From positions 1 through 13,789 of IMG/VR virus record IMGVR_UViG_2568526722_000003: a stretch of DNA of 13,789 bases. One strand, written 5' to 3'. The notes beneath the pieces were generated by a model, which was not told the origin of the DNA, ran no database searches, and saw only the letters and a list, made by a program, of their open reading frames with translations. The stretch is from a virus (lineage: Duplodnaviria > Heunggongvirae > Uroviricota > Caudoviricetes). A program made the position numbers and the translations under genes. Below, in pieces: positions 1,949-11,837 of this stretch (the stretch's first letter is position 1; each line of letters begins with the position of its first letter).

Positions 1949-2046
1949 TTACGCCAGTTGTACGGACACGAACTCATCAGGGTCAGCCAGCAGCATCAGC
2001 GGTGCTGACTGAATCATGGTGAACTCACGCGCCGGATCCGCCAGAT
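1949..2046 (-). pseudogene. E: C-terminal remnant of major capsid gene E (last ~24 codons ...FTMIQSAPLMLLADPDEFVSVQLA*)
   Basis: Minus-strand frame just upstream of FI encodes FTMIQSAPLMLLADPDEFVSVQLA-stop, recalled as the gpE C-terminus; homology stops upstream where sequence switches to Nu1. Confidence 0.5.
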
Positions 2047-2202
2047 TTCGGCATACCATTTTATGACGGCGGCAGAGTCATAAAGCACCTCATTACCCTT
2101 GCCACCGCCTCGCAGAACGGGCATTCCCTGTTCCTGCCAGTTCTGAATGGTACGGATACTCGCACCGAAAATGTCAGCCAGCTGCTTTTTGTTGACTTCC
2201 AT
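2014..2202 (-). pseudogene. nu1: Terminase small subunit Nu1, N-terminal 52 codons only, fused to foreign tail (IWRIRRVSSP*)
   Basis: MEVNKKQLADIFGASIRTIQNWQEQGMPVLRGGGKGNEVLYDSAAVIKWYAE matches lambda Nu1 residues 1-52 as recalled; the next 10 codons are not Nu1 and run into the gene E remnant; junction around 2040-2047. Confidence 0.85.
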
Positions 2203-2379
2203 TGTTCATTCCACGGCCAAAAACAGAGAAAGGAAACGACAAAGGCCCAAAAGCTCGTTTTCAGCACCTGTCGTTTCCTTTCTTTTCAGGGGGTATTTTA
2301 AATAAAAACATTAAGTTACGACGAAGAAGAACGGAAACACCTTAAACCGGAAAATTTTCATAAATAGCAAAAACCCGCG

Positions 2380-2391
2380 AGGTCGCCGCCC
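2380..2391 (-). other. cos: cos site: 12-nt lambda cohesive end GGGCGGCGACCT (cosN core), with cosB/Nu1 leader on one side and lambda right-end sequence on the other
   Basis: Minus strand reads ...CCGGCGATCCGACAGGTTACG|GGGCGGCGACCT|CGCGGGTTTTTGCTATTTATGAAAATTTTCCGGTTTAAGG..., matching the joined lambda right and left ends as recalled; lies about 180 nt upstream of the Nu1 start. Confidence 0.85.
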
Positions 2392-2590
2392 CGTAACCTG
2401 TCGGATCGCCGGAAAGGACCCGCAAAATGATAATAATTATCATCTGCATGTCACAACGTGCATCTACGCCATCAAACCACGTCAAATAATCAATTATGAC
2501 GCAGGTATCATATTAATTGATCTGCATCAACTTAACGTAAAAACAACTTCAGACAATACAAATCAGCGACACTGAATACGGGACAACCTC

Positions 2591-2824
2591 ATGTCAACGA
2601 AGAACAGAACCCGCAGAACAACAACCCGCAACATCCGCTTTCCTAACCAAATGATTGAACAAATTAACATCGCTCTTGATCAAAAAGGGTCTGGGAACTT
2701 CTCAGCCTGGGTCATTGAAGCCTGCCGCCGAAGACTGTGCTCAGAAAAAAGAGTTTCGCCTGAAGCAAACAAAGAAAAGAGTGACATTACTGAATTGCTC
2801 AGAAAGCAGGTCAGACCAGATTGA
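2591..2824 (+). CDS. Small ribbon-helix-helix-like DNA-binding protein (77 aa), possibly YlcI/DUF3950-like
   Basis: ATG ORF; basic N-terminal tail (KNRTRRTTTR), then predicted beta-strand NIRFP and two helices (NQMIEQINIALDQ / FSAWVIEACRRRL), typical RHH topology; AT-rich; the family name is from memory and unverified. Confidence 0.55.
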   Translation: MSTKNRTRRTTTRNIRFPNQMIEQINIALDQKGSGNFSAWVIEACRRRLCSEKRVSPEANKEKSDITELLRKQVRPD

Positions 2825-2881
2825 AGCAATTTAGATAATCGTGCAGACTAGGTACCCTCATATCACATGGAAGGTACTACA

Positions 2882-3292
2882 ATGGCTCAGGTTGCCATTT
2901 TTAAACAAATATTCGATAAAGTGCGAAATAATTTAAACTATCACTGGTTTTATTCTGAACTAAAACGTCACAATGTCTCACATTACATTTACTATTTAGC
3001 CACAGAGAATATTCATCTTGTTCTTGAAAACGATAATACGGTTTTAATAAAAGGACAGGGTAAGGTTGTAAATGTAAGATTTTCAAAAAATAAATGCCTT
3101 ATAGAAGCCACATTAAAAGGATTCAAATCAGGAGAGTTATCATTTTACGAATACAGGAAAAATCTTGCTACAGCAGGGGTTTTCAGATGGATTACAAATA
3201 TCCACGAAAACAAAAGGTATTACTATACCTTTGATAATTCATTACTCTTTACTGAGAACATTCAGAACACTACACAAATATTTCCGCACTAA
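2882..3292 (+). CDS. AT-rich hypothetical protein (~137 aa), possibly DUF1398/YbcV-like moron
   Basis: Uninterrupted ORF; ATG at 2882 has a GGAAGG Shine-Dalgarno 7 nt upstream (the track start at 2867 has none); strongly AT-rich codon usage unlike the flanking phage genes; the family assignment is a recollection. Confidence 0.55.
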
Positions 3293-3337
3293 ATCATAAC
3301 GTCCGGTTTCTTCCGTGCCAGAACCGGACTCGCTGGC

Positions 3338-3502
3338 ATGATGAAATATGTGTACCCGGTAACCCCGGTGTGCATCGTTTTTGATTATTCCCGCACACTC
3401 GCGCAGAAGGAGTTCCCCGTCGGGCTACGGTCTCTGTTAATACGGGAATACGGCGACGATACAGCGCATGATGTGTCAGGCTTGAATACCTTTATCCTTT
3501 AA
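3338..3502 (+). CDS. Possible small ORF, 54 aa (MMKYVYPVTPVCIVFDYSRTLAQKEFPVGLRSLLIREYGDDTAHDVSGLNTFIL)
   Basis: ATG-initiated ORF just under the 60-aa track cutoff; sits between a stem-loop (3301-3329) and hairpin element A; no clear Shine-Dalgarno. Confidence 0.2.
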   Translation: MMKYVYPVTPVCIVFDYSRTLAQKEFPVGLRSLLIREYGDDTAHDVSGLNTFIL

Positions 3503-3970
3503 AAGGGATATCAGTTAAGTTATCCCGTGTAGGGTATAAGCCATTATCAAAGCCACTCTGTAGGGAATGGCTTTTGTGATGGCATCACTTACTCTTTACG
3601 CTGCTATCCCACTCATCCCGGAATTTTGATGGGTTATTGAAACCTTCTGCTGACATAACAACTCCTTCAATGTTTGGCTGAAATTAGGATGTCTTTCCAT
3701 CAGTCCGCCACCACAAAGAATCTTTTTTGCCATAAGGCAGGAGGTTCATCTTTCAGTGGCTGCCGGTGTTATTTCCCCACTTACTGGCTTGGGTTGTTTC
3801 GTGGTACTGCCGTTAACTGGTGGCGCACAGATTTAGTTAAATCCGTTCTCGCCTGAACTATCTTTTACATACCCGGATTGTGGGGATGTAAATCACGGTT
3901 TCATTATCAAGCCCACCAGTAGATGGGCTTTGTAATGAAGAGTTGTTATGAAAATTGCTCTAAACAAGCA

Positions 3971-4459
3971 TTAATAGCCATCAGAAGTAATCGCTACAGA
4001 TTTCAATCCCTCAATGTCATCCTTGGACAGGGCGAACCATTCACCGTGCTTTCTCTTTGCGGCAAATTTGCGATGAAGCATGTTTTCAGTTTCTCTTCCA
4101 CCAGGGATCAGGCACTCAAGCTTCAAGCAGTCTGGTCCAGAGTTGCCAAGCGATTTGATGCGTTGTGGAATGTTGGATGAATACCCAATTTTGGTTAGCC
4201 CAGTTTTCTTCGATGACAAAACGTATACCTGAGGAGGTTCTTTTCTCTGGTCTTCCATTACACGTCTCATTGTTGCCATAAGTCCGCCGTGCATCAGCAT
4301 TTCAACAAAGAACGCTGACCGAACACCTGACGACTTAAGCATGCCAGAAAATTCACTTGCCAATTCCATTAACTCTGCGATGTTTTCAGGAACTTTTTGG
4401 CAGTTATCTTCCTTGTATAAGGAAATCATTCTTTGAAGCTTTTCTTCTAATTGGTTCAT
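3971..4459 (-). CDS. T5orf172 / GIY-YIG-like domain protein (~162 aa) with an unrecognised N-terminal region
   Basis: C-terminal half (VYVLSSKKTGLTKIGYSSNIPQRIKSLGNSGPDCLKLECLIPGGRETENMLHRKFAAKRKHGEWFALSKDDIEGL) fits the T5orf172/MUG113 pattern (YVYxL...KIG.T.N..RR...L...E..LH..F...R..GEWF); the track start at 4495 is GTG, the first ATG is at 4457-4459 (MNQLEEK...). Confidence 0.6.
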   Translation of the reverse strand: MNQLEEKLQRMISLYKEDNCQKVPENIAELMELASEFSGMLKSSGVRSAFFVEMLMHGGLMATMRRVMEDQRKEPPQVYVLSSKKTGLTKIGYSSNIPQRIKSLGNSGPDCLKLECLIPGGRETENMLHRKFAAKRKHGEWFALSKDDIEGLKSVAITSDGY

Positions 4460-4608
4460 AGCGTCTTTACCTTTTAGAAAGTGAGCCTGTCTCACAGAAA
4501 AGCCGCCCCGAGATGGTCGCCACCATATACGGCAGTTCTCAGGCTCAACTTTCTGAAAGGCTCGGGTGATGTAATATGCGCGTGAGATGCGCTGTGAAAT
4601 TCAGATGT

Positions 4609-4632
4609 AAAAAAAGCCCCGCATCGCGAGGC
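4609..4632 (-). terminator. Rho-independent terminator downstream of Rz/Rz1
   Basis: Minus strand GCCTCGCGATGCGGGGC (7-bp GC-rich stem with one G-U pair, 3-nt loop) followed by TTTTTTT, about 30 nt after the Rz stop. Confidence 0.6.
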
Positions 4633-4664
4633 TCATTAAATGGACTTTGTGATTTGCAAAAAAA

Positions 4665-5123
4665 TTATTTCAGGCATTGCGTCCTGATGTATTCCTGCAG
4701 GTAGTTAACCTGCGCGGTTATCTTGTCGATTCCACTTCGGAGACGGTAATAATTGAGTTCAGCATCTGCTGTAAGTCCTGGGCTTTCTCCATCGCCCATG
4801 CCGCTGGCTCCGGTCGTTGACTTTGCACAGGTGGCGGCGACTTGCAGGCGCTTACGCCCAGCAGAAACATCAGCACGGAGACTTTCGATAGTCGCGTTAG
4901 CATCAGCAAGCTCCTTTGTGTATCTTGCGTCGAGTTCTGCTACATCACGTTGACGCTTCCGCATGTCAGCGATGGTGGCGTTCGCCTTCTCCAGTTCACT
5001 GGCCTTGTTATCGCGCTGCTCTTTGTAGGCGATTGCGTTATCACGGTAATGATTAACAGCCCATGACAGGCAGACGATGATGCAGATACCCGGCACTACC
5101 TGCTGAGGTGCCATAGGCGACAC
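4665..5123 (-). CDS. Rz: Spanin inner-membrane subunit Rz (i-spanin), N-terminus chimeric
   Basis: From [19 protein letters not shown]...KELADA... onward resembles lambda Rz as recalled; the first ~12 codons (from a GTG start) are encoded within the holin stub in another frame. Confidence 0.7.
4718..4903 (-). CDS. Rz1: Spanin outer-membrane lipoprotein Rz1 (o-spanin), embedded in Rz in the +1 frame
   Basis: [36 protein letters not shown]...: signal peptide with lipobox (LGVSAC) followed by a proline-rich region, wholly inside Rz as in lambda Rz/Rz1; ATG at 4901-4903. Confidence 0.7.
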
Positions 5124-5151
5124 CCGTTGTTAACTTATCCATGGATTTCAT
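5059..5151 (-). pseudogene. Holin remnant: first ~22 codons of a phage-21/DLP12 EssD-type holin ([22 protein letters not shown]), then out-of-frame read into Rz and stop
   Basis: ATG at 5149-5151 with GAGGTG Shine-Dalgarno; N-terminus matches S21/EssD as recalled; after ~22 codons the sequence continues as Rz in another frame; no endolysin ORF lies between holin and Rz. Confidence 0.65.
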
Positions 5152-5260
5152 AACCCCACCTCGCAGACAAAGCGGGTGTAAATTGAGGGAATACTACGAA
5201 ACGTAACAGACTCGGAGTCAGTGAATAACTCAGGTATTGGGTTATCAGCTAATATCGAGA

Positions 5261-5296
5261 CTCAAAAAATGGAAAAACCCACTCGACGGCGGGTTT
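5261..5296 (-). terminator. Candidate intrinsic terminator on the late-operon strand upstream of the holin stub
   Basis: Minus strand AAACCC-gccgtcgagt-GGGTTT followed by TTCCATTTTTTGAG. Confidence 0.3.
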
Positions 5297-5724
5297 AAGC
5301 TGTGTGACGAAGTAACCACTCTTAACAGCATAACCAATTTTTTACGTACGTAAACCACTAAATGATATTTGCGAGAATGCTACCGAGTATTGAAAACACC
5401 ACTACAAATACATAAGCAAATCTCAACAAATAACCAACAAATAATTCCCAGTGTTATTTTTAGCCGATTTAAATTGAACCTTCAAATCATAGAGCACTTA
5501 TAAATAACAACCGTTAATATAAATTGGCTAATAGATTTATTTTTATTCAGCCAAGAGCCATGAATAGGATTCGATAGAAAAAAGTTCAGATAAAAATAGA
5601 GATCTACTTCACAAATCAAACGAGAAACCAAAACTTACATCTTGAAATAATCATATTGATTAGATGAATATTTATCGCGCAGTGACATCATTTTTTAATA
5701 ATAGTTCAAAAAAAAGGGCTCACG

Positions 5725-6822
5725 ATGAAAAAATTAACAGTGGCAATTTCTGCTGTAGCTGCATCAGTACTGATGGCGATGTCTGCTCAGGCAGCTGAAA
5801 TTTATAATAAAGACAGTAACAAGCTGGATCTGTACGGGAAAGTTAATGCTAAGCACTACTTCTCCTCTAATGATGCAGATGATGGTGATACTACTTATGC
5901 CCGTCTTGGCTTCAAAGGTGAAACCCAAATCAACGATCAACTGACTGGTTTCGGTCAGTGGGAATATGAATTCAAAGGCAACCGCGCTGAATCTCAAGGT
6001 TCCTCCAAAGATAAAACCCGTCTTGCCTTCGCTGGCCTGAAATTCGGTGACTACGGCTCCATCGATTACGGCCGTAACTACGGTGTAGCATACGACATCG
6101 GTGCGTGGACTGACGTTCTGCCAGAATTCGGTGGCGATACCTGGACCCAAACAGATGTGTTCATGACTGGTCGCACCACTGGTGTTGCAACCTATCGTAA
6201 CAACGACTTCTTTGGTCTGGTTGATGGTCTGAACTTTGCTGCTCAGTACCAAGGCAAAAACGATCGTAGCGATTTCGATAACTACACCGAAGGTAACGGT
6301 GATGGCTTCGGTTTCTCTGCTACCTATGAATACGAAGGATTCGGTATCGGTGCAACTTATGCGAAATCTGATCGTACCGACACTCAAGTTAATGCAGGGA
6401 AAGTTCTTCCTGAAGTATTTGCTTCCGGTAAAAATGCAGAAGTTTGGGCCGCAGGTCTGAAATATGACGCTAACAACATTTACCTGGCCACTACCTATTC
6501 TGAAACCCAGAATATGACTGTATTTGCTGATCACTTCGTTGCTAATAAAGCTCAAAACTTCGAAGCTGTTGCACAATATCAGTTCGATTTCGGTCTGCGT
6601 CCGTCCGTTGCTTACCTGCAATCTAAAGGTAAGGATCTTGGAGTATGGGGCGATCAGGACTTAGTCAAATATGTTGATGTAGGTGCAACCTATTACTTCA
6701 ACAAAAATATGTCTACTTTCGTTGATTACAAAATCAACCTGCTTGACAAAAATGACTTCACTAAAGCACTCGGTGTAAGCACTGATGACATCGTTGCTGT
6801 AGGTCTGGTTTACCAGTTCTAA
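5725..6822 (+). CDS. nmpC: OmpC-family outer-membrane porin (NmpC / phage Lc type), 365 aa, intact
   Basis: Signal peptide [23 protein letters not shown]|AEIYNKD, porin motifs and C-terminal ...VAVGLVYQF; full-length and uninterrupted; opposite orientation to Q and the lysis genes, as for DLP12 nmpC and PA-2 lc. Confidence 0.9.
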
Positions 6823-6830
6823 TCTGATTA

Positions 6831-6872
6831 CGAAAAAGATATGTTGCGGGAGGCTTTGCCTCCCCAACATAT
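6831..6872 (-). terminator. Candidate late terminator (tR'-like) downstream of Q on the minus strand
   Basis: Minus strand ATATGTTGGGGAGGC-aaag-GCCTCCCGCAACATAT (about 15-bp stem) followed by CTTTTTCG; about 140 nt downstream of the Q stop. Confidence 0.45.
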
Positions 6873-6960
6873 AAGTGGCTCCCTCAAGCCACTTCCTTTA
6901 GGAGCACAACCTTGCTTCTAACTATATAAACCTTCTGTTATATATTACCCTTTATTTTTG

Positions 6961-6990
6961 GGGGCGTTGCAACGCCCCATTTTTAATAAT
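6961..6990 (+). terminator. Rho-independent terminator for the porin gene; perfect 18-bp palindrome
   Basis: GGGGCGTTGCAACGCCCC followed by ATTTTTAATAATTTTT on the plus strand. Confidence 0.5.
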
Positions 6991-7011
6991 TTTTAGTAAA
7001 CAACTGGCATA

Positions 7012-7395
7012 TTAATTAGAGTTATTAACAACGATATCCATCTCTAACCGGATATCTAATGCCATTAACATCCCTTCAATTATGCCCTCAGCCTTCTGTA
7101 ACCTTTTCCCGATATAACCATCAGAGCAGCAATGCTTACCTGCCAGTGACATGAATGTCATACCGACTACATAATAATCTACTAATAAATCGTGCAAATC
7201 GCTGTTGTTCTTTTTCAGACGGGCCATGCACCCGCAAATAATCATCGCGTCATCGTCACAACATTGCGGGCGAGATTTTACTTTTGAAGTAATTAATCCC
7301 TTAAAACCGGCGGCAATGGACGACCAGGTCACATCTTCATGATTATTAGCCGCCCACGCTCCCCAACGCTCAAGAACCATCTGAATATCACGCAT
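7012..7395 (-). CDS. Q: Late-gene antiterminator Q, phage 21/82 (DLP12 QuuD) type, 127 aa
   Basis: [34 protein letters not shown]...[16 protein letters not shown]... matches DLP12-type Q as recalled; ATG at 7393-7395 (the track start at 7410 is TTG). Confidence 0.85.
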
Positions 7396-7480
7396 CAACT
7401 TACTCCACAAAAATCAGGCCAGAACGCCAATTACAAGCAAAAATCAACAAAACAGTATTAGTTGATTGTTATCTCTGACT

Positions 7481-7621
7481 TCATACTCCTGCTCCTGTCA
7501 GGGTTTTGGCGTAATTCTTCAGTATTCGGTAATCGGTCAAAACAGAACCGGGGGAACGATATAAGCGCAGACGCCCCCAGCGGTGGCGAAGAAGTTCTGC
7601 CATATTAAACTCAAACATCAT
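7481..7621 (-). CDS. ylcG: Small protein YlcG-like (46 aa)
   Basis: Hand-translated [49 protein letters not shown]; its ATG overlaps the rusA stop (ATGA); matches DLP12 YlcG as recalled; below the track size cutoff. Confidence 0.6.
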
Positions 7622-7980
7622 TCATTCCCCATTTCGGTGATGGTCAGTTCCAGCCTCCCACCTTTGGTAACAGGCATCTTCACAACGCGGTAATCAACGA
7701 CCTGAGCATCATCCAGCCAGAAACCTGCTTTAGTGAGTGCGTCAAAAGCGGCTTTTTGCAGATTATCCAGGTCACGGCGACGGCGATCCGGCATGTGGCA
7801 CTCAATGCGGATTTTCACAGGCATAGCCAGGCCGATATCCAGCATTGCGTTTTTAATGATTCGGGCGACGTTATCGCGGTATGCCTGCCCCTCTGCGCTG
7901 ACGTGCGTGCGCCCTCGATTATGGCGGTAGTAGCGGTTATTGCTCGGCGGCCAGGGTAGTGTGATGTGGTAAGTATTCAC
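7618..7980 (-). CDS. rusA: Holliday-junction resolvase RusA, 120 aa
   Basis: (M)[37 protein letters not shown]...[28 protein letters not shown]... matches RusA as recalled; GTG start overlapping the upstream stop (GTGA). Confidence 0.93.
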
Positions 7981-8066
7981 GCCTTAATTACCCCCTCTTT
8001 CAGCCAGATAACCTGCGTTCTCGCCATACCTTCCAGCGCGCATTCTTTTGCATATGCAGCATCGAC
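7977..8066 (-). pseudogene. ybcO: C-terminal remnant of a YbcO-like (DUF1364) gene, about 29 codons
   Basis: Frame ending ...[29 protein letters not shown] with the stop overlapping the rusA start; matches the YbcO C-terminus as recalled; further upstream the frame hits a stop and no N-terminal YbcO-like sequence appears in any frame. Confidence 0.4.
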
Positions 8067-8186
8067 TTGCTTGGCATGCCCTTTACCGGCAATCTTCTGT
8101 ATGCGCTAAACCTAGATAGAATCCACTCTGTGCACATTGAAGCCCGCTCTATGCTTCCTTTCAGGTATTGAAGGGATTGAGATGGG

Positions 8187-8534
8187 CTAAGCATTATTGG
8201 CCTCCTGCATCAGGAGAAAGACAATCATGGCGGCGCGGAGAGGTCTGGTATCAAATATTGGGCTTACGCCTTTTGCATCCACACACCATTCAGTTAACTG
8301 GTCTAAGATAGAAATCCTGTATTTCTCAATAATCGGCCATGAAGCGCTCGGATCATTGCAGTAGTCAGGCAAATGATTTAATGGCTCAAAAGTTGTATCA
8401 GCATTTCCGTAATACCATTTGTTGGTGTTATTCCCTGATGTTTCCGGTTTACTTGCCCAAAGGCCTTTAAAAATTATGTCTCCTACCATTCTGTTAATTT
8501 CAAAATCACTTAACTGTGAATAATCCATTGTCAT
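8187..8534 (-). CDS. Hypothetical nin-region protein (~115 aa)
   Basis: [92 protein letters not shown]...; ATG overlaps the ninE stop (ATGA); GAGGAA nearby; family not recognised. Confidence 0.5.
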
Positions 8535-8707
8535 TTCCTCGCACGATATCTTAGCCACCGGATATCCCACAGGTGAGCTGTGTAATTGAAGGTTTTTACG
8601 TCAGATTCTTTTGGGATTGGCTTGCGTTTATTTCTGGAGCGTTTCGTTGGAAGGTATTTGCAGTTTTCGCAGATGATGTCGGTGAAACTTCGTCGCTGTC
8701 GCCTCAT
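8531..8707 (-). CDS. ninE: NinE, 58 aa
   Basis: [58 protein letters not shown] matches lambda NinE as recalled; ATG overlaps the methyltransferase stop. Confidence 0.75.
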
Positions 8708-9231
8708 GCCGCCCTCCTGACGCCCTGCCCGAACGCCATCAATGCCGCTTTGGATACGGTAGTAAACATCCGTCGAGGACTGATGAACGGTCGCCAAATC
8801 AGCAGCATGGAGCCTTTGCTGTTTCCCTTCTTCTCCAGCCCTGTCGATGGTTCGATAAAATTAATCCGTCCATCAGTGATAATGCGAACTTCGTCGACAC
8901 TCTCCAGAGCCTTGCTGAACCATCCGACTGACATATCCTCTGGCACAAGCATAACTACCGTCTGTCGCTGTTGTATGCACTGCTCAGCGGCTTTTTCCAC
9001 CCACGGCCTGATATTGCTGTACGGTGGGTTATTCCAGATTGCACCGTGGCTTACCCACTCAGAATTGAGCGCGTCGTCGGCCTCAGTTAGCCAGTGAGCA
9101 CACAGAGCATTTTTGTCGCTCGCTGCCGAATCCAGCCAGAATCCAAACTCAATATCCAGTGCATCAAAAAGCCAAAGCGGCGTTTGCCAGCAGTCCTTGT
9201 CGTGTGCTGGCGTATTTGATTTGATAGTCAT
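8704..9231 (-). CDS. Phage Dam-like DNA N6-adenine methyltransferase (~175 aa)
   Basis: [50 protein letters not shown]...[16 protein letters not shown]...: NPPY catalytic motif and DxxA...WxTP pattern of the small phage N6-A methyltransferase family; ATG at 9229-9231 with GGGGAGA upstream; overlaps the ninB stop. Confidence 0.75.
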
Positions 9232-9737
9232 GCAGCTCGATCTCCCCATCTCGCTTTCCACTCCAGAGCCAGTCTCGCTTCGTCTGACCACTTAACGCCA
9301 CGCTCTGTACCGAATGCCTGTATAAGCTCTAATAGCTCCGCAAATTCGTTTACACGCATCCTGCTGGTTGACTGGCCTATTACCACAAAGCCATTCCCGG
9401 CAAGGTTAGGAACAACATCCTGCTGCTTTAATGCTGCGGTAAACACACACTTCCAGCTTTCTGCATCCAGCCAGCGACCATGCCATTCAACCTGACGAGA
9501 GACGTCACCAAGGCAAGCCCAAAGCTTTCGATTCTGGTCTAAGCTGCGGTTGCGTTCCTGAATGGTTACTACGATTGGTTTGGTTGGGTCTGGAAGAATT
9601 TGCTGTAACCGCCCTATTCTCTCGCTGAATCGCAAACCGAAATCACGAGTAGAAAGCGCACTGAATCCGATAGACCTTACGGTGCTGGCTGAATACCACG
9701 AACAGATTGAAAGCAACCTGCAACGTATTGAGCGCAA
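9228..9737 (-). CDS. ninB: Recombination protein NinB (Orf), C-terminal ~125 aa lambda-like, N-terminal ~44 codons atypical with no canonical start
   Basis: From QQILPDPTKPIVVTIQERNRSLDQNRKLWACLGDVSRQVEWHGRWLDAESWKCVFTAALKQQ... to the stop matches lambda NinB as recalled; the preceding 44 codons do not, and the track start is a TTG. Confidence 0.65.
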   Translation of the reverse strand: MRSIRCRLLSICSWYSASTVRSIGFSALSTRDFGLRFSERIGRLQQILPDPTKPIVVTIQERNRSLDQNRKLWACLGDVSRQVEWHGRWLDAESWKCVFTAALKQQDVVPNLAGNGFVVIGQSTSRMRVNEFAELLELIQAFGTERGVKWSDEARLALEWKARWGDRAA

Positions 9738-9839
9738 GAATCATCGAGTTTGGTATAGCAAGCCAAGTGAGTTCGGTATAACTTGTCAAGGAAGACAAAA
9801 GGTTAAAGGGAAATCCATTCCATTGGCATGAGGTACGTA

Positions 9840-10169
9840 ATGAAGAAAATTGATTACAAGTCCATACCAAAACCAATAGACTCAGCATCAGAGCGAAAAA
9901 AACACAAAAAAGAGGCTGAAAAATTAGCAAATTATATCAGTTTTATTAGAAACAATGCTCACGGCGATGGCGACAGGAAGTTGCTTTCAGATGCCCGGAC
10001 CCAAGCGTTCAGTATACTTCGTAAGCAGATGCAATATCGTCTTCATCCAGGCTACATAATTGAAATTCGCCCGACTGAAAGACAATTGTTCTTATTAAAC
10101 TCTGTCTTTGACTTTGTAAACGTAGTTGGAGATCTTATCGACAGGTCTGTAGATAAGGCTCCTGGGTGA
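9840..10169 (+). CDS. AT-rich hypothetical protein, 3' end cut by IS1 (stop supplied by the IS1 left end)
   Basis: ORF MKKIDYKSIPKPIDSASERKKHKKEAEKLANYISFIRNNAHGDGDRKLLSDARTQAFSILRKQMQYRLHPGYIIEIRPTERQLFLLNSVFDFVNVVGDLIDRSVDKAPG*; ATG at 9840 with GAGG 8 nt upstream; low GC; the last codons and stop (GG TGA) are IS1 sequence; no family recognised. Confidence 0.45.
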   Translation: MKKIDYKSIPKPIDSASERKKHKKEAEKLANYISFIRNNAHGDGDRKLLSDARTQAFSILRKQMQYRLHPGYIIEIRPTERQLFLLNSVFDFVNVVGDLIDRSVDKAPG

Positions 10170-10219
10170 TGCTGCCAACTTACTGATTTAGTGTATGATG
10201 GTGTTTTTGAGGTGCTCCA

Positions 10220-10495
10220 GTGGCTTCTGTTTCTATCAGCTGTCCCTCCTGTTCAGCTACTGACGGGGTGGTGCGTAACGGCAAAAGCACCGCCGGACAT
10301 CAGCGCTATCTCTGCTCTCACTGCCGTAAAACATGGCAACTGCAGTTCACTTACACCGCTTCTCAACCCGGTACGCACCAGAAAATCATTGATATGGCCA
10401 TGAATGGCGTTGGATGCCGGGCAACTGCCCGCATTATGGGCGTTGGCCTCAACACGATTTTACGTCACTTAAAAAACTCAGGCCGCAGTCGGTAA
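10220..10495 (+). CDS. insA: IS1 InsA (transposition inhibitor / transposase N-terminal part), 91 aa
   Basis: [43 protein letters not shown]... matches IS1 InsA. Confidence 0.95.
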
Positions 10496-10917
10496 CCTCG
10501 CGCATACAGCCGGGCAGTGACGTCATCGTCTGCGCGGAAATGGACGAACAGTGGGGCTATGTCGGGGCTAAATCGCGCCAGCGCTGGCTGTTTTACGCGT
10601 ATGACAGTCTCCGGAAGACGGTTGTTGCGCACGTATTCGGTGAGCGCACTATGGCGACGCTGGGGCGTCTTATGAGCCTGCTGTCACCCTTTGACGTGGT
10701 GATATGGATGACGGATGGCTGGCCGCTGTATGAATCCCGCCTGAAGGGAAAGCTGCACGTAATCAGCAAGCGATATACGCAGCGAATTGAGCGGCATAAC
10801 CTGAATCTGAGGCAGCACCTGGCACGGCTGGGACGGAAGTCGCTGTCGTTCTCAAAATCGGTGGAGCTGCATGACAAAGTCATCGGGCATTATCTGAACA
10901 TAAAACACTATCAATAA
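10414..10917 (+). CDS. insB: IS1 InsB' frame (transposase catalytic part, expressed as InsAB' by -1 frameshift)
   Basis: ...[72 protein letters not shown]... matches IS1 InsB. Confidence 0.93.
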
Positions 10918-11042
10918 GTTGGAGTCATTACCAGAAAGCAGGTCTTTCTCTCGTGTAGAGATAAGCGAGTCAGAGTTATGGGGTATATCAAATAATCCTG
11001 TAAACCACGCTCACCAACGAAATCCAAACAAAAAGTGGTCAT

Positions 11043-11600: not shown

Positions 11601-11672
11601 GCGCGGCGTTACCGCATACCAATAACGCTTCACTCGAGGCGTTTTTCGTTATGTATAAATAAGGAGCACACC

Positions 11673-11837
11673 ATGCAATATGCCATTGCAGGGTGGCCTG
11701 TTGCTGGCTGCCCTTCCGAATCTTTACTTGAACGAATCACCCGTAAATTACGTGACGGATGGAAACGCCTTATCGACATACTTAATCAGCCAGGAGTCCC
11801 AAAAAATGGATCAAACACTTATGGCTATCCAGACTAA
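11673..11837 (+). CDS. cIII: CIII (FtsH/HflB protease inhibitor), 54 aa
   Basis: Hand-translated [54 protein letters not shown] matches lambda CIII; AAGGAG Shine-Dalgarno upstream; the track merged it with kil. Confidence 0.9.
   Translation: MQYAIAGWPVAGCPSESLLERITRKLRDGWKRLIDILNQPGVPKNGSNTYGYPD

Follow-up and report, generated by a model that had tools for sequence, protein, structure and literature searches.

What are the two small AT-rich genes that lie next to the cohesive-end site of this prophage, and do they form a functional pair? In the preliminary description of the window, that is, of the whole stretch of 13,789 nucleotides analysed here, they had been put forward as a possible toxin-antitoxin or small defence module, or as a regulator-effector pair. 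Our analysis favours, with a probability of about 0.6, two separate and independently mobile accessory genes in the lysis-packaging slot, with no toxin-antitoxin or other obligate coupling between them. Both genes are already known: they are catalogued as DUF3950 and DUF1398, are annotated in RefSeq, and occur in lambda and in nearly all E. coli.

Two known gene families beside cos

The features on which the argument draws are, in window coordinates:

2014-2202, minus strand: truncated remnant of Nu1, the terminase small subunit (Pfam Phage_Nu1, E 4.7e-30, profile positions 1-52 of 164)
2380-2391, no strand: cosN cohesive-end sequence AGGTCGCCGCCC, the complement of lambda GGGCGGCGACCT (sequence reading)
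2427-2443, no strand: perfect palindrome ATGATAAT-A-ATTATCAT between cos and ynfO (inverted-repeat search)
2591-2824, plus strand: ynfO/ylcI-type gene for a very basic 77-aa protein, pI 10.6 (Pfam DUF3950, RefSeq WP_001309326.1)
2627-2740, plus strand: ynfO codons 13-50, putative ribbon-helix-helix (RHH) elements (sequence and hhalign register)
2809-2817, no strand: palindrome GGTC-A-GACC (GGTCAGACC) within the final codons of ynfO, 65 nt ahead of the ydfO start codon
2869-2874, plus strand: Shine-Dalgarno sequence GGAAGG of ydfO, 7 nt before the ATG at 2882, kept in all aligned copies
2882-3292, plus strand: ydfO/ybcV-type gene for a 136-aa DUF1398 protein (PF07166, similarity to PDB 2HH8)

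Two AT-rich open reading frames thus occupy the plus strand at 2591-2824 (77 aa) and 2867/2882-3292, with a spacer of 57 nt between the stop of the first gene, which ends at 2824, and the RefSeq ATG of the second at 2882; the two genes share a reading frame as well as a strand. This layout, including the GGAAGG ahead of the second ATG, had been read correctly from the outset. In lambda-type copies, the earlier ATG (2867 here) is not in frame with the gene (upstream-region alignment), so that the second product has 136 aa rather than 141, and the size of about 137 aa given earlier needs only a small correction. The flanking genes, Nu1', FI, FII-like, Z and U to one side of the insert and Rz beyond its other end, all lie on the minus strand, confirming the claimed orientation opposite to the late operon, and the contrast in composition with the phage core is equally real, at 44.9% GC for ynfO and 31.1% for ydfO versus 56.8% for the late genes (162-1946).

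The gene pair begins 200 nt from cosN; in the record of phage DE3, a 'cos site' is annotated under the stretch homologous to the cos region of the window. Only residues 1-52 of the Nu1 remnant, which marks the packaging side of the junction, are Nu1-like, and relative to an intact relative (L001) 6.7 kb are deleted after window position 2042. The host prophage is lambda-like and now defective. The slot between its lysis cassette and packaging genes differs in content among relatives, which carry bor, ybcW, GIY-YIG, KilA-N, csp, or nothing there. With a position between core modules, variable presence among relatives and a deviating GC content, the insert is upheld as an AT-rich accessory 'moron' adjoining cos and antisense to the late operon.

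Pfam, named in the preliminary description as a check on both proteins, assigns each of them above its cut-off, and the fallback suggestion made there, conserved YlcI/YbcV-type genes of unknown function, is exactly right by Pfam, NCBIfam and RefSeq. The ynfO product matches PF13132 (DUF3950) with 74.6 bits against a cut-off of 25 (E 5.4e-21), the NCBIfam family YlcI_YnfO_N (NF041551) with 35.7 bits against a cut-off of 30, and phrog_949 with E 8e-34; the identical RefSeq protein, WP_001309326.1, already bears the name 'YlcI/YnfO family protein'. Its N-terminal 50 residues are conserved, with 34 invariant positions among the first 49 in the family alignment, and its C-terminal tail is variable. 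Compared with the copy in Stx phages, where homology begins exactly at the ATG, the N-terminal domain has a dN/dS of 0.03, indicating very strong purifying selection. The lambda record carries no annotation at the homologue, ylcI (NC_001416 48148-48303, complement).

The DUF1398 protein covers profile positions 1-119 of 119 in PF07166 with 147.1 bits against a cut-off of 22, and phmmer aligns it at E 2.9e-67 to 2HH8, the solved NMR structure of K-12 YdfO. Like YdfO, it carries an internal duplication of a helix-helix-three-strand unit. AlphaFold prediction from 19 close homologues was unusable (pLDDT 53.7), which a deeper alignment with divergent members remedied; the fold is found solely within its own family and has no informative neighbour. 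No column of the family alignment holds an invariant His, Cys, Asp or Glu, and the dN/dS of ydfO lies between 0.2 and 0.34. Given the Pfam scores, the match to 2HH8 and the dN/dS values, the two reading frames are real genes rather than chance. DUF1398 has been labelled 'head protein' and 'putative envelope protein', for which we found no support, there being no similarity to structural or virion proteins and no family match beyond DUF1398 itself.

For the N-terminal domain of YnfO, an RHH fold is plausible on sequence grounds. The putative elements are a beta-strand RNIRFP, helix A NQMIEQINIALDQ, a turn KGSGNFS and helix B AWVIEACRRRL, the strand displaying an Arc/Mnt-like N-x-R-x-P motif in the correct register. 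Arc and Mnt, the controllers of the immI region of phage P22, are likewise small phage proteins, with the strand F-N-L/F-R-W/M-P where YnfO has R-N-I-R-F-P, and in both a helix follows the strand, then a glycine turn at equal spacing and a second helix, as predicted for YnfO. In hhalign, YnfO residues 12-33 fall on Arc residues 9-30 in RHH register; however, the statistical support is weak both for this match (E 0.018) and for that to Arc and Mnt combined (E 0.035), each with a probability below 3%. The Arc and Mnt query sequences were checked against 1ARQ and 1MNT. A weak match to the HicB-like phrog_497 was also obtained (E 0.007), while YnfO matched no Pfam RHH family at E values up to 10 and no PDB sequence, PDB profile search included. 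A further difference lies in the genomic role, which for Arc and Mnt is the control of immI.

The two genes together and apart

How firmly are the two genes tied to each other in related elements? The closest counterpart is the ynfO-ydfO pair of the K-12 prophage Qin (locus L095), in which order, strand, spacing and placement beside a Nu1-type gene and cos are as in the window, as are the upstream palindrome and the Shine-Dalgarno sequence. The Qin YnfO, also of 77 aa, is 98% identical over its first 52 residues, whereas YdfO is only 76% identical; the DUF1398 allele thus diverges by 24%, and the prophage around it in the window is another lambda-like element that has decayed on its own.

In lambda and DLP12, the same two families keep the same orientation relative to cos and the late operon, and the block of cos and the ynfO N-terminal part is very close to that of the window (2046-2753, 96% identical to lambda), followed by a second block (2804-3468) of 82% identity. 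However, about 610 bp of extra sequence separate these two blocks in both elements, including ybcW (lambdap79), an opposite-strand gene of 68 aa that is absent from the window, so that the order there is ylcI - ybcW - ybcV (lambdap78, the 'putative envelope protein'). YlcI is also shorter, at 64 aa versus 77. The tight spacing in the window would then go back to an indel of some 610 bp that sets it apart from lambda and DLP12.

The palindrome at 2427-2443 goes along with cos rather than with ynfO: an imperfect copy is present at locus L007, which has the same cos and no ynfO, and where homology ends at window position 2442. The palindrome at 2809-2817 is kept upstream of every aligned phage-clade DUF1398 gene, and it corresponds to the PdhR-box-like site reported in K-12, where genomic SELEX gave PdhR peaks between ynfO and ydfO and in the ybcV/ybcW spacer, and where ybcV mRNA was down 10-fold in a pdhR mutant (PMC7660256). 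A conserved leader of about 80 nt that contains this palindrome precedes ydfO as its own (upstream-region alignment). On the plus strand, scans found no sigma-70-like promoter above threshold upstream of either gene and no terminator that passed, and there is no convincing terminator between ynfO and ydfO. A hand-picked GATAAT at 2834-2839 was rejected as a promoter element for its inconsistent spacing in lambda-type copies, and neither the spacer nor the region that follows ydfO showed significant RNA structure (z-scores -0.48 and -0.40). In the window, ynfO and ydfO may well be read on one transcript, which would be in keeping with a regulator-effector relationship between genes arranged in this way. 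In K-12, RNA-seq revealed overlapping ybcW-ylcI transcripts (PMC12288877), and ydfO mRNA is inducible (PMC4077768).

Within lambda-type cos modules, the association is frequent, as DUF3950 precedes phage-clade DUF1398 at each of the seven genuine prophage loci of Escherichia/Shigella under study. Over a wider range, each gene is commonly found alone. Among 5426 complete E. coli genomes, ydfO-like DNA is present in 5376 (8879 places) and the ynfO N-terminal segment in 4184 (9861 places). In the phage collection, 43 records contain DUF1398 and 155 contain DUF3950, more than 100 of the latter with no detectable DUF1398; in both inspected genomes of Stx-converting prophages (Pankowvirus), DUF3950 stands alone, divergent from HNH-TerS-TerL. 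DUF3950 also occurs in capsid-forming PICIs (PMC13612085), and the gene is intact in prophages devoid of terminase, portal and capsid genes as well as in the K-12 elements DLP12 and Qin. Conversely, locus L120 has ybcW and DUF1398 without DUF3950, and L007 has a divergent DUF1398 beside the same cos, again without DUF3950. Of 30 divergent chromosomal DUF1398 loci, drawn from the Escherichia ycgX clade, Kluyvera, Pseudocitrobacter, Citrobacter and S. diarizonae, none has DUF3950, Nu1 or cos within 4 kb, and in all of these, as in L007 and L120, the DUF1398 frame is uninterrupted over the matched 117-129 of 136 residues. Apparent 'Rosetta stone' fusions carrying both Pfam domains (P0010, P0014) were discarded as gene-calling artefacts whose translation runs through the 57-nt spacer with W for TGA and Y for TAG.

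Possible roles of the two proteins

What, then, could two such independent genes do? In the reading we favour, the N-terminal domain of YnfO would most likely form an Arc/Mnt-like RHH dimer and act as a DNA-binding transcription regulator, and the DUF1398 protein would most likely bind a host component rather than be an enzyme or a toxin. Since both genes are antisense to the late operon, they would be expressed from the resident prophage and be overridden by late transcription; transcripts of the K-12 copies are documented. The ybcV product of lambda, lambdap78, was found non-essential for lytic growth by CRISPRi (PMC10695390). Attempts to deduce a role for DUF1398 from its gene neighbourhood were abandoned, the chromosomal homologues being lone genes whose neighbours are unrelated (an aryl-polyene cluster, SopE, MASE4, a cold-shock protein, a PrpA-like phosphatase, an SMR pump).

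The strongest competitor, possible but clearly the less probable account, is a regulator-effector operon, in which YnfO as an RHH repressor would control its own leftward transcript together with the adjacent ydfO of the lambda-type cos module, for example from the GGTCAGACC palindrome or from a site between cos and ynfO, both genes then being one functional unit, though not a toxin-antitoxin system. The common strand and frame, the short spacer with no convincing terminator, the palindrome conserved upstream of all aligned phage-clade ydfO/ybcV genes, and the upstream position of DUF3950 in lambda as well as in the seven prophage loci speak for such an operon. However, lambda and DLP12 interpose the opposite-strand gene and its 610 bp, L120 has retained ybcW and DUF1398 without DUF3950, DUF3950 lacks a detectable partner in over a hundred phage records, and the palindrome has been reported as the site of the host factor PdhR, not of YnfO (PMC7660256).

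It is doubtful that the DUF3950 protein has a phage-directed role, binding DNA near the start of the packaging genes and thereby modulating late-operon read-through, packaging-gene expression or the use of cos, or excluding related phages or satellites, with DUF1398 as an unrelated passenger. Its constant position and antisense orientation beside modules as unrelated as lambda Nu1/A with cos and the HNH-TerS-TerL of Stx phages would fit this, as would the extreme conservation of YnfO and its presence in PICIs, which depend on helper-phage packaging (PMC13612085). Yet L007 has the same cos without DUF3950, and the persistence of an intact gene in prophages stripped of terminase, portal and capsid genes, and also in DLP12 and Qin, argues for a host-side or neutral role; the fixed position may merely reflect a slot permissive for insertion. 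With equally little confidence, one may regard DUF3950 as a dedicated RHH factor of the lambdoid lysis-to-packaging junction, and DUF1398 as a separate, host-directed binding protein with its own fold. Besides the extreme constraint and the occurrence beside two unrelated packaging modules and in satellites, that DUF3950 is always antisense to the late operon, and went without annotation in the lambda reference record, would agree with this; if true, such a factor could control the read-through or use of packaging genes, or interference between phages and satellites.

A cassette for anti-phage defence or superinfection exclusion, expressed by the prophage in the manner of other lysis-packaging morons, is very improbable. 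The slot does carry bor, an outer-membrane/serum-resistance moron, in lambda, and in the window a neighbouring GIY-YIG/T5orf172 gene with a weak PADLOC match (PDC-S57, E 8e-6), and one phage-resistant APEC mutant had lost ydfO, but as a single gene among several changes (PMC8711792). Against such a cassette, PADLOC-DB 2.0 gave no match for YnfO and for YdfO solely Csx23, which is not significant (E 0.023, 12.7 bits); nuclease, NTPase, TIR, SIR2 and membrane features are all absent from both proteins, and nearly every E. coli has the two genes, laboratory strains with full sensitivity to standard phages among them.

The type II toxin-antitoxin system, in which YnfO as an RHH antitoxin would neutralize a DUF1398 toxin through its variable C-terminal tail, fares slightly worse still. 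Its appeal lies in the layout, which resembles that of modules with RHH antitoxins (RelBE, ParDE, CcdAB, and HicAB with an RHH HicB): a small upstream gene for a probable RHH, DNA-binding protein with a conserved N-terminal domain and variable tail, followed by a gene for a protein of 100-150 aa, here 136. The weak PHROG match of YnfO to a HicB-like antitoxin family is in line with this, and ybcV is listed, together with the toxins yoeB and hokA, among the genes with a glycogen-deficient phenotype on overexpression (PMC2853380). The ASKA ybcV clone grew enough for glycogen to be scored (PMC2853380); ybcV overexpression may still have mild effects on growth. Unlike in the known modules, the downstream protein belongs to no toxin family (Pfam, NCBIfam, PADLOC, PDB) and matches no toxin fold, has none of the invariant residues looked for above, is solo in all 30 chromosomal loci and in L007 and L120, is found in more E. 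coli genomes than its supposed antitoxin, and is not contiguous with it in lambda and DLP12. The tail of YnfO is near-identical in the window and Qin, though their YdfO proteins differ by 24%, and is replaced by an unrelated one where DUF1398 is missing. The TraDIS table of low-insertion genes 'essential only by TraDIS' lists the antitoxins relB, higA and hipB and also ydfO, while ynfO is absent from the study's main text; to flag ydfO and not ynfO is the opposite of the toxin-antitoxin prediction (PMC5821084). With no obligate pairing, nothing significant in PADLOC and a fold of the family's own, the earlier toxin-antitoxin or small-defence-module reading is not supported, and the gene pair should not be counted as a candidate for either.

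Annotations and published claims

As found, the locus matters little in itself, its families being known and one structure solved; YnfO is strongly conserved. Two further outcomes are corrective. A resistance to oxidative stress raised by YdfO overexpression, as claimed in PMC4077768, finds no backing: the paper cited for it names YfdK, YfdO and YfdS of CPS-53, and ydfO appears nowhere in the main text, so that the published statement on YdfO traces to a paper naming YfdO. The second concerns the seemingly wide taxonomic spread. Matches from Staphylococcus, Bacillus, actinomycetes, a spider and others proved to lie on contigs that are about 3.5 kb or about 48.5 kb long and identical to lambda, a size pattern that fits sequencing control DNA; many apparent homologues in unrelated organisms would then be lambda control DNA, and the real taxonomic range is the Enterobacteriaceae.

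Identity and arrangement of the two genes

What are the two AT-rich genes next to cos? The window is a lambda-like E. coli prophage in decay, with the following features (coordinates, strand, description).

Features of the window
late genes, - strand: tail genes U and Z, a head-tail attachment (FII-type) gene and FI
2014-2202, - strand: Nu1 remnant
2380-2391: cosN cohesive-end sequence
2427-2443: perfect 8-1-8 palindrome ATGATAAT-A-ATTATCAT, about 35 nt past cosN on the ynfO side
2591-2824, + strand: ynfO, 77 aa
2809-2817: palindrome GGTCAGACC, within the ydfO leader
2882-3292, + strand: ydfO, 136 aa
beyond the two genes: GIY-YIG/T5orf172 gene (- strand), Rz, porin gene, Q, rusA, nin genes, IS1, cIII with thermoregulator, recT/recE
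about 10165-10932: IS1, with InsA/InsB ORFs at 10220-10917

Compared with an intact relative, L001 from NZ_CP063473, the prophage is defective and lacks three stretches: 6.7 kb reaching from codon 53 of Nu1 through A, W, B, C/Nu3 and D to the capsid gene E; 0.68 kb in the lysis cassette, where the endolysin and holin region lies; and 4.3 kb with ren, P, O, cII, cro and cI in the immunity/replication region. The blocks aligning to L001 are 145-2042, 2046-5088, 5083-9612 and 9606-10164, of which the second, containing ynfO-ydfO, is 99.97% identical.

Both ynfO and ydfO are real genes, as follows from the Pfam scores of their products (DUF3950, 74.6 bits; DUF1398, 147 bits), the match of the 136-aa protein to the NMR structure of K-12 YdfO (2HH8, E 3e-67), and dN/dS values of 0.03 for ynfO (first 47 codons, where 17 of the differences from an Stx-phage copy are synonymous and 3 non-synonymous) and 0.2-0.34 for ydfO. 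The preliminary description had correctly given the 57-nt spacer, the Shine-Dalgarno GGAAGG, the antisense orientation of both genes to the late genes, and their deviant composition. GGAAGG lies at 2869-2874, 7 nt upstream of ATG 2882, and GC is 44.9% in ynfO and 31.1% in ydfO, against 56.8% in the late genes. A 141-aa ORF from ATG 2867 was rejected as the gene: lambda-type copies have this ATG in another frame, and the RefSeq gene is 411 nt long.

The fallback of the preliminary description, a moron of the YlcI/YbcV type, was the right one: the genes are ynfO-ydfO of the K-12 prophage Qin, corresponding to ylcI and ybcV of DLP12. Nothing here is new as a discovery: the two families are catalogued, the pair has been seen before, and structure and annotation exist. 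The right end of lambda carries a ylcI homologue, lambdap79 (ybcW-like, opposite strand), lambdap78 (DUF1398) and then bor. Lambda matches window 2046-2753 (Nu1', cos and the first 54 codons of ynfO) at 96% identity; homology restarts at 2804, at 82% identity, and an indel lies between the two blocks, where lambda and DLP12 hold about 610 bp more than the window. By this alignment, the tight spacing seen here is one of two common arrangements. The final codons of the window's ynfO are the sequence that in lambda serves as the upstream leader of ybcV. Lambda's homologue of ylcI/ynfO (NC_001416 / J02459, 48148-48303, complement) corresponds to window 2591-2746, with 96% identity over 52 residues, and is under strong purifying selection; neither reference record has an annotated feature beneath it.

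Independent occurrence of ynfO and ydfO

The two genes do not form an obligate unit. A tblastn search of the phage collection gave 43 records with DUF1398 and 155 with the DUF3950 domain. In both Stx-converting prophage genomes inspected (Pankowvirus, n=2), the DUF3950 gene occurs by itself, oriented divergently to an HNH endonuclease-TerS-TerL module and with no DUF1398 found nearby; nucleotide homology of the Stx-phage copy to the window begins at the ATG and ends with codon 47. Conversely, locus L120 has ybcW and DUF1398 next to a different terminase gene, and L007, with a lambda-type cos and Nu1, fills the same slot with a highly divergent DUF1398 (~20% identity), both without DUF3950. One-genome-per-species data hold 30 loci with a DUF1398 of 53% identity or less, from the ycgX clade of Escherichia and Shigella and from Citrobacter, Kluyvera, Pseudocitrobacter, Salmonella diarizonae and unnamed Enterobacteriaceae. 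None of the 30 has DUF3950, Nu1 or cos within 4 kb, and DUF1398 is there a single gene among unrelated neighbours. Among 5426 complete E. coli genomes, ynfO-like DNA occurs in 4184 (9861 places, at most 12 in one genome) and ydfO-like DNA in 5376 (8879 places, at most 6 in one genome). DUF3950 proteins are also found in capsid-forming PICIs of Enterobacter (PMC13612085).

Lambda right-end DNA (ylcI-ybcW-ybcV) also occurs in assemblies named Pseudomonas, Kitasatospora, Brevibacillus, Flavobacterium, Staphylococcus aureus, spider and others (loci L099-L119, L121 and L130-L133, plus many 3.4-3.6-kb ENA contigs), as well as in an Arcanobacterium 'plasmid unnamed1' of 3566 bp. Because of their sizes, ~3.5 kb and ~48.5 kb, such contigs would fit sequencing control DNA. 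Lambda DNA in assemblies inflates the apparent taxonomic range of both families and has leaked into publications.

Proposed roles of YnfO and YdfO

Our preferred reading, to which we assign a probability of roughly 0.6, is that two independent accessory genes occupy a permissive slot where the lysis genes give way to the packaging genes. Running antisense to the late operon, they would act mainly in the prophage state: YnfO would be a ribbon-helix-helix (RHH) regulator and YdfO a binding protein that acts on a host process. The analyses show what the genes are, where they occur, how they are selected, the fold of YdfO, the independence of the genes and the indel; that YnfO binds DNA, when the genes are expressed and what kind of activity YdfO has are inferred.

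YnfO is very basic (pI 10.6), with residues 1-49 near-invariant and a variable tail. Its R-N-I-R-F-P, followed by helix, G-turn and helix, resembles the F-N-L-R-W-P of Arc and the F-N-F-R-M-P of Mnt (checked against 1ARQ and 1MNT). Hhalign places YnfO 12-33 on Arc 9-30 weakly (E 0.018-0.035), a HicB-like PHROG matches with E 0.007, and the Pfam RHH families gave no match. An RHH fold appears likely from these comparisons, and YnfO probably is a small DNA-binding regulator.

The model of YdfO, poor from a shallow alignment, reached pLDDT 87.4 and pTM 0.80 once divergent family members were added, and predicts two tandem copies of a unit made of two helices and three strands. The family is tiny, with 189 clusters at 50% identity in a set of 1.8 billion representatives, and limited to Enterobacteriaceae; Pfam and the precomputed domain table give DUF1398 as its sole domain. 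Only L27, N43, G99 and Y114 are invariant among divergent members, a set unlike an active site; YdfO probably works by binding rather than as an enzyme, under the control of its own conserved leader. Labels of DUF1398 as 'putative envelope protein' or 'head protein' found no support in any search made. The often quoted link of YdfO to oxidative stress (PMC4077768) looks like a gene-name mix-up: the cited paper (PMC3105296) reports resistance from overexpression of YfdK, YfdO and YfdS of prophage CPS-53, and ydfO is absent from its main text.

Could YnfO instead regulate YdfO locally? No terminator was found between the genes in the window, so that co-transcription is possible in this arrangement, and a regulator-effector relationship therefore stays a reasonable, if rather improbable, rival to the independence we favour.

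The toxin-antitoxin or defence pair of the preliminary description is not borne out, as the putative toxin is routinely solo and seemingly intact across the matched residues, the genes lie apart in lambda and DLP12, and PADLOC was negative for the pair. Knock-down of lambdap78 leaves lambda plating unaffected (PMC10695390). A TraDIS study flags relB, higA and hipB, does not name ynfO in its main text, and places K-12 ydfO in its low-insertion list ('essential only by TraDIS'; PMC5821084), where a toxin-antitoxin pair would predict the reverse. The same list holds iraM, a gene near the paralogue ycgX, along with many more acquired genes that are AT-rich, and its authors offer no reason; we suspect H-NS occlusion of AT-rich DNA, or ambiguous read mapping among paralogues. 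Speaking weakly for a toxin, ybcV overexpression is glycogen-deficient, in the same list as yoeB and hokA (PMC2853380).

A more plausible defence-type moron is the 174-aa GIY-YIG/T5orf172 (MUG113) protein encoded at 3971-4495 (- strand), in lambda's bor slot, which matches PADLOC candidate PDC-S57 weakly (E 8e-6) and phrog_4284, of unknown function, strongly. As to lambdap79 (2251-2457 of L002, - strand in that locus; absent from the window), it scores as essential by CRISPRi, though known to be dispensable. It is annotated opposite to ylcI/lambdap78, and so co-directional with the late genes; its score may therefore reflect polarity, with late transcription blocked before it reaches Nu1/A. 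It is named six times in a 2026 preprint on an NADase defence domain.

The ydfO leader and flanking elements

In an alignment of upstream regions, the ydfO leader, including GGTCAGACC, is conserved in both arrangements, as is the Shine-Dalgarno. Genomic SELEX in K-12 places PdhR sites at exactly these leader positions in both paralogues, and ybcV mRNA is down 10-fold in a pdhR mutant (PMC7660256).

The 2427-2443 palindrome seems to be part of the cos region rather than of ynfO, since L007, which has no ynfO, retains an imperfect copy, directly after which its homology to the window stops. A promoter-like match, GTGACA-16-TATCAT (- strand, 2454-2427), overlaps it.

A segment of ~110-120 bp at 3350-3470, 50 nt 3' of ydfO, recurs at 80-95% identity in 432 phage records and is thus far commoner than either domain; copies lie at L007 5498-5618, L156 3461-3592 and L002 ~3190-3327. 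Its carriers include short-tailed Stx2a phages, and most records are unannotated there. Indels interrupt its small + strand ORF (3338-3502) in lambda, so that it is probably noncoding. It has no match in Rfam, and its consensus fold has just 2-3 compensatory pairs and many broken ones; it may be a conserved junction or a regulatory element closing the lysis cassette.

Further along, an nmpC-like porin gene (5725-6822, + strand) separates the Q antiterminator from what is left of the lysis cassette, as it does in DLP12, and Rfam identifies the cIII thermoregulator Lambda_thermo (88.5 bits, 11660-11718, + strand) ahead of a cIII-like ORF at 11673-11837.
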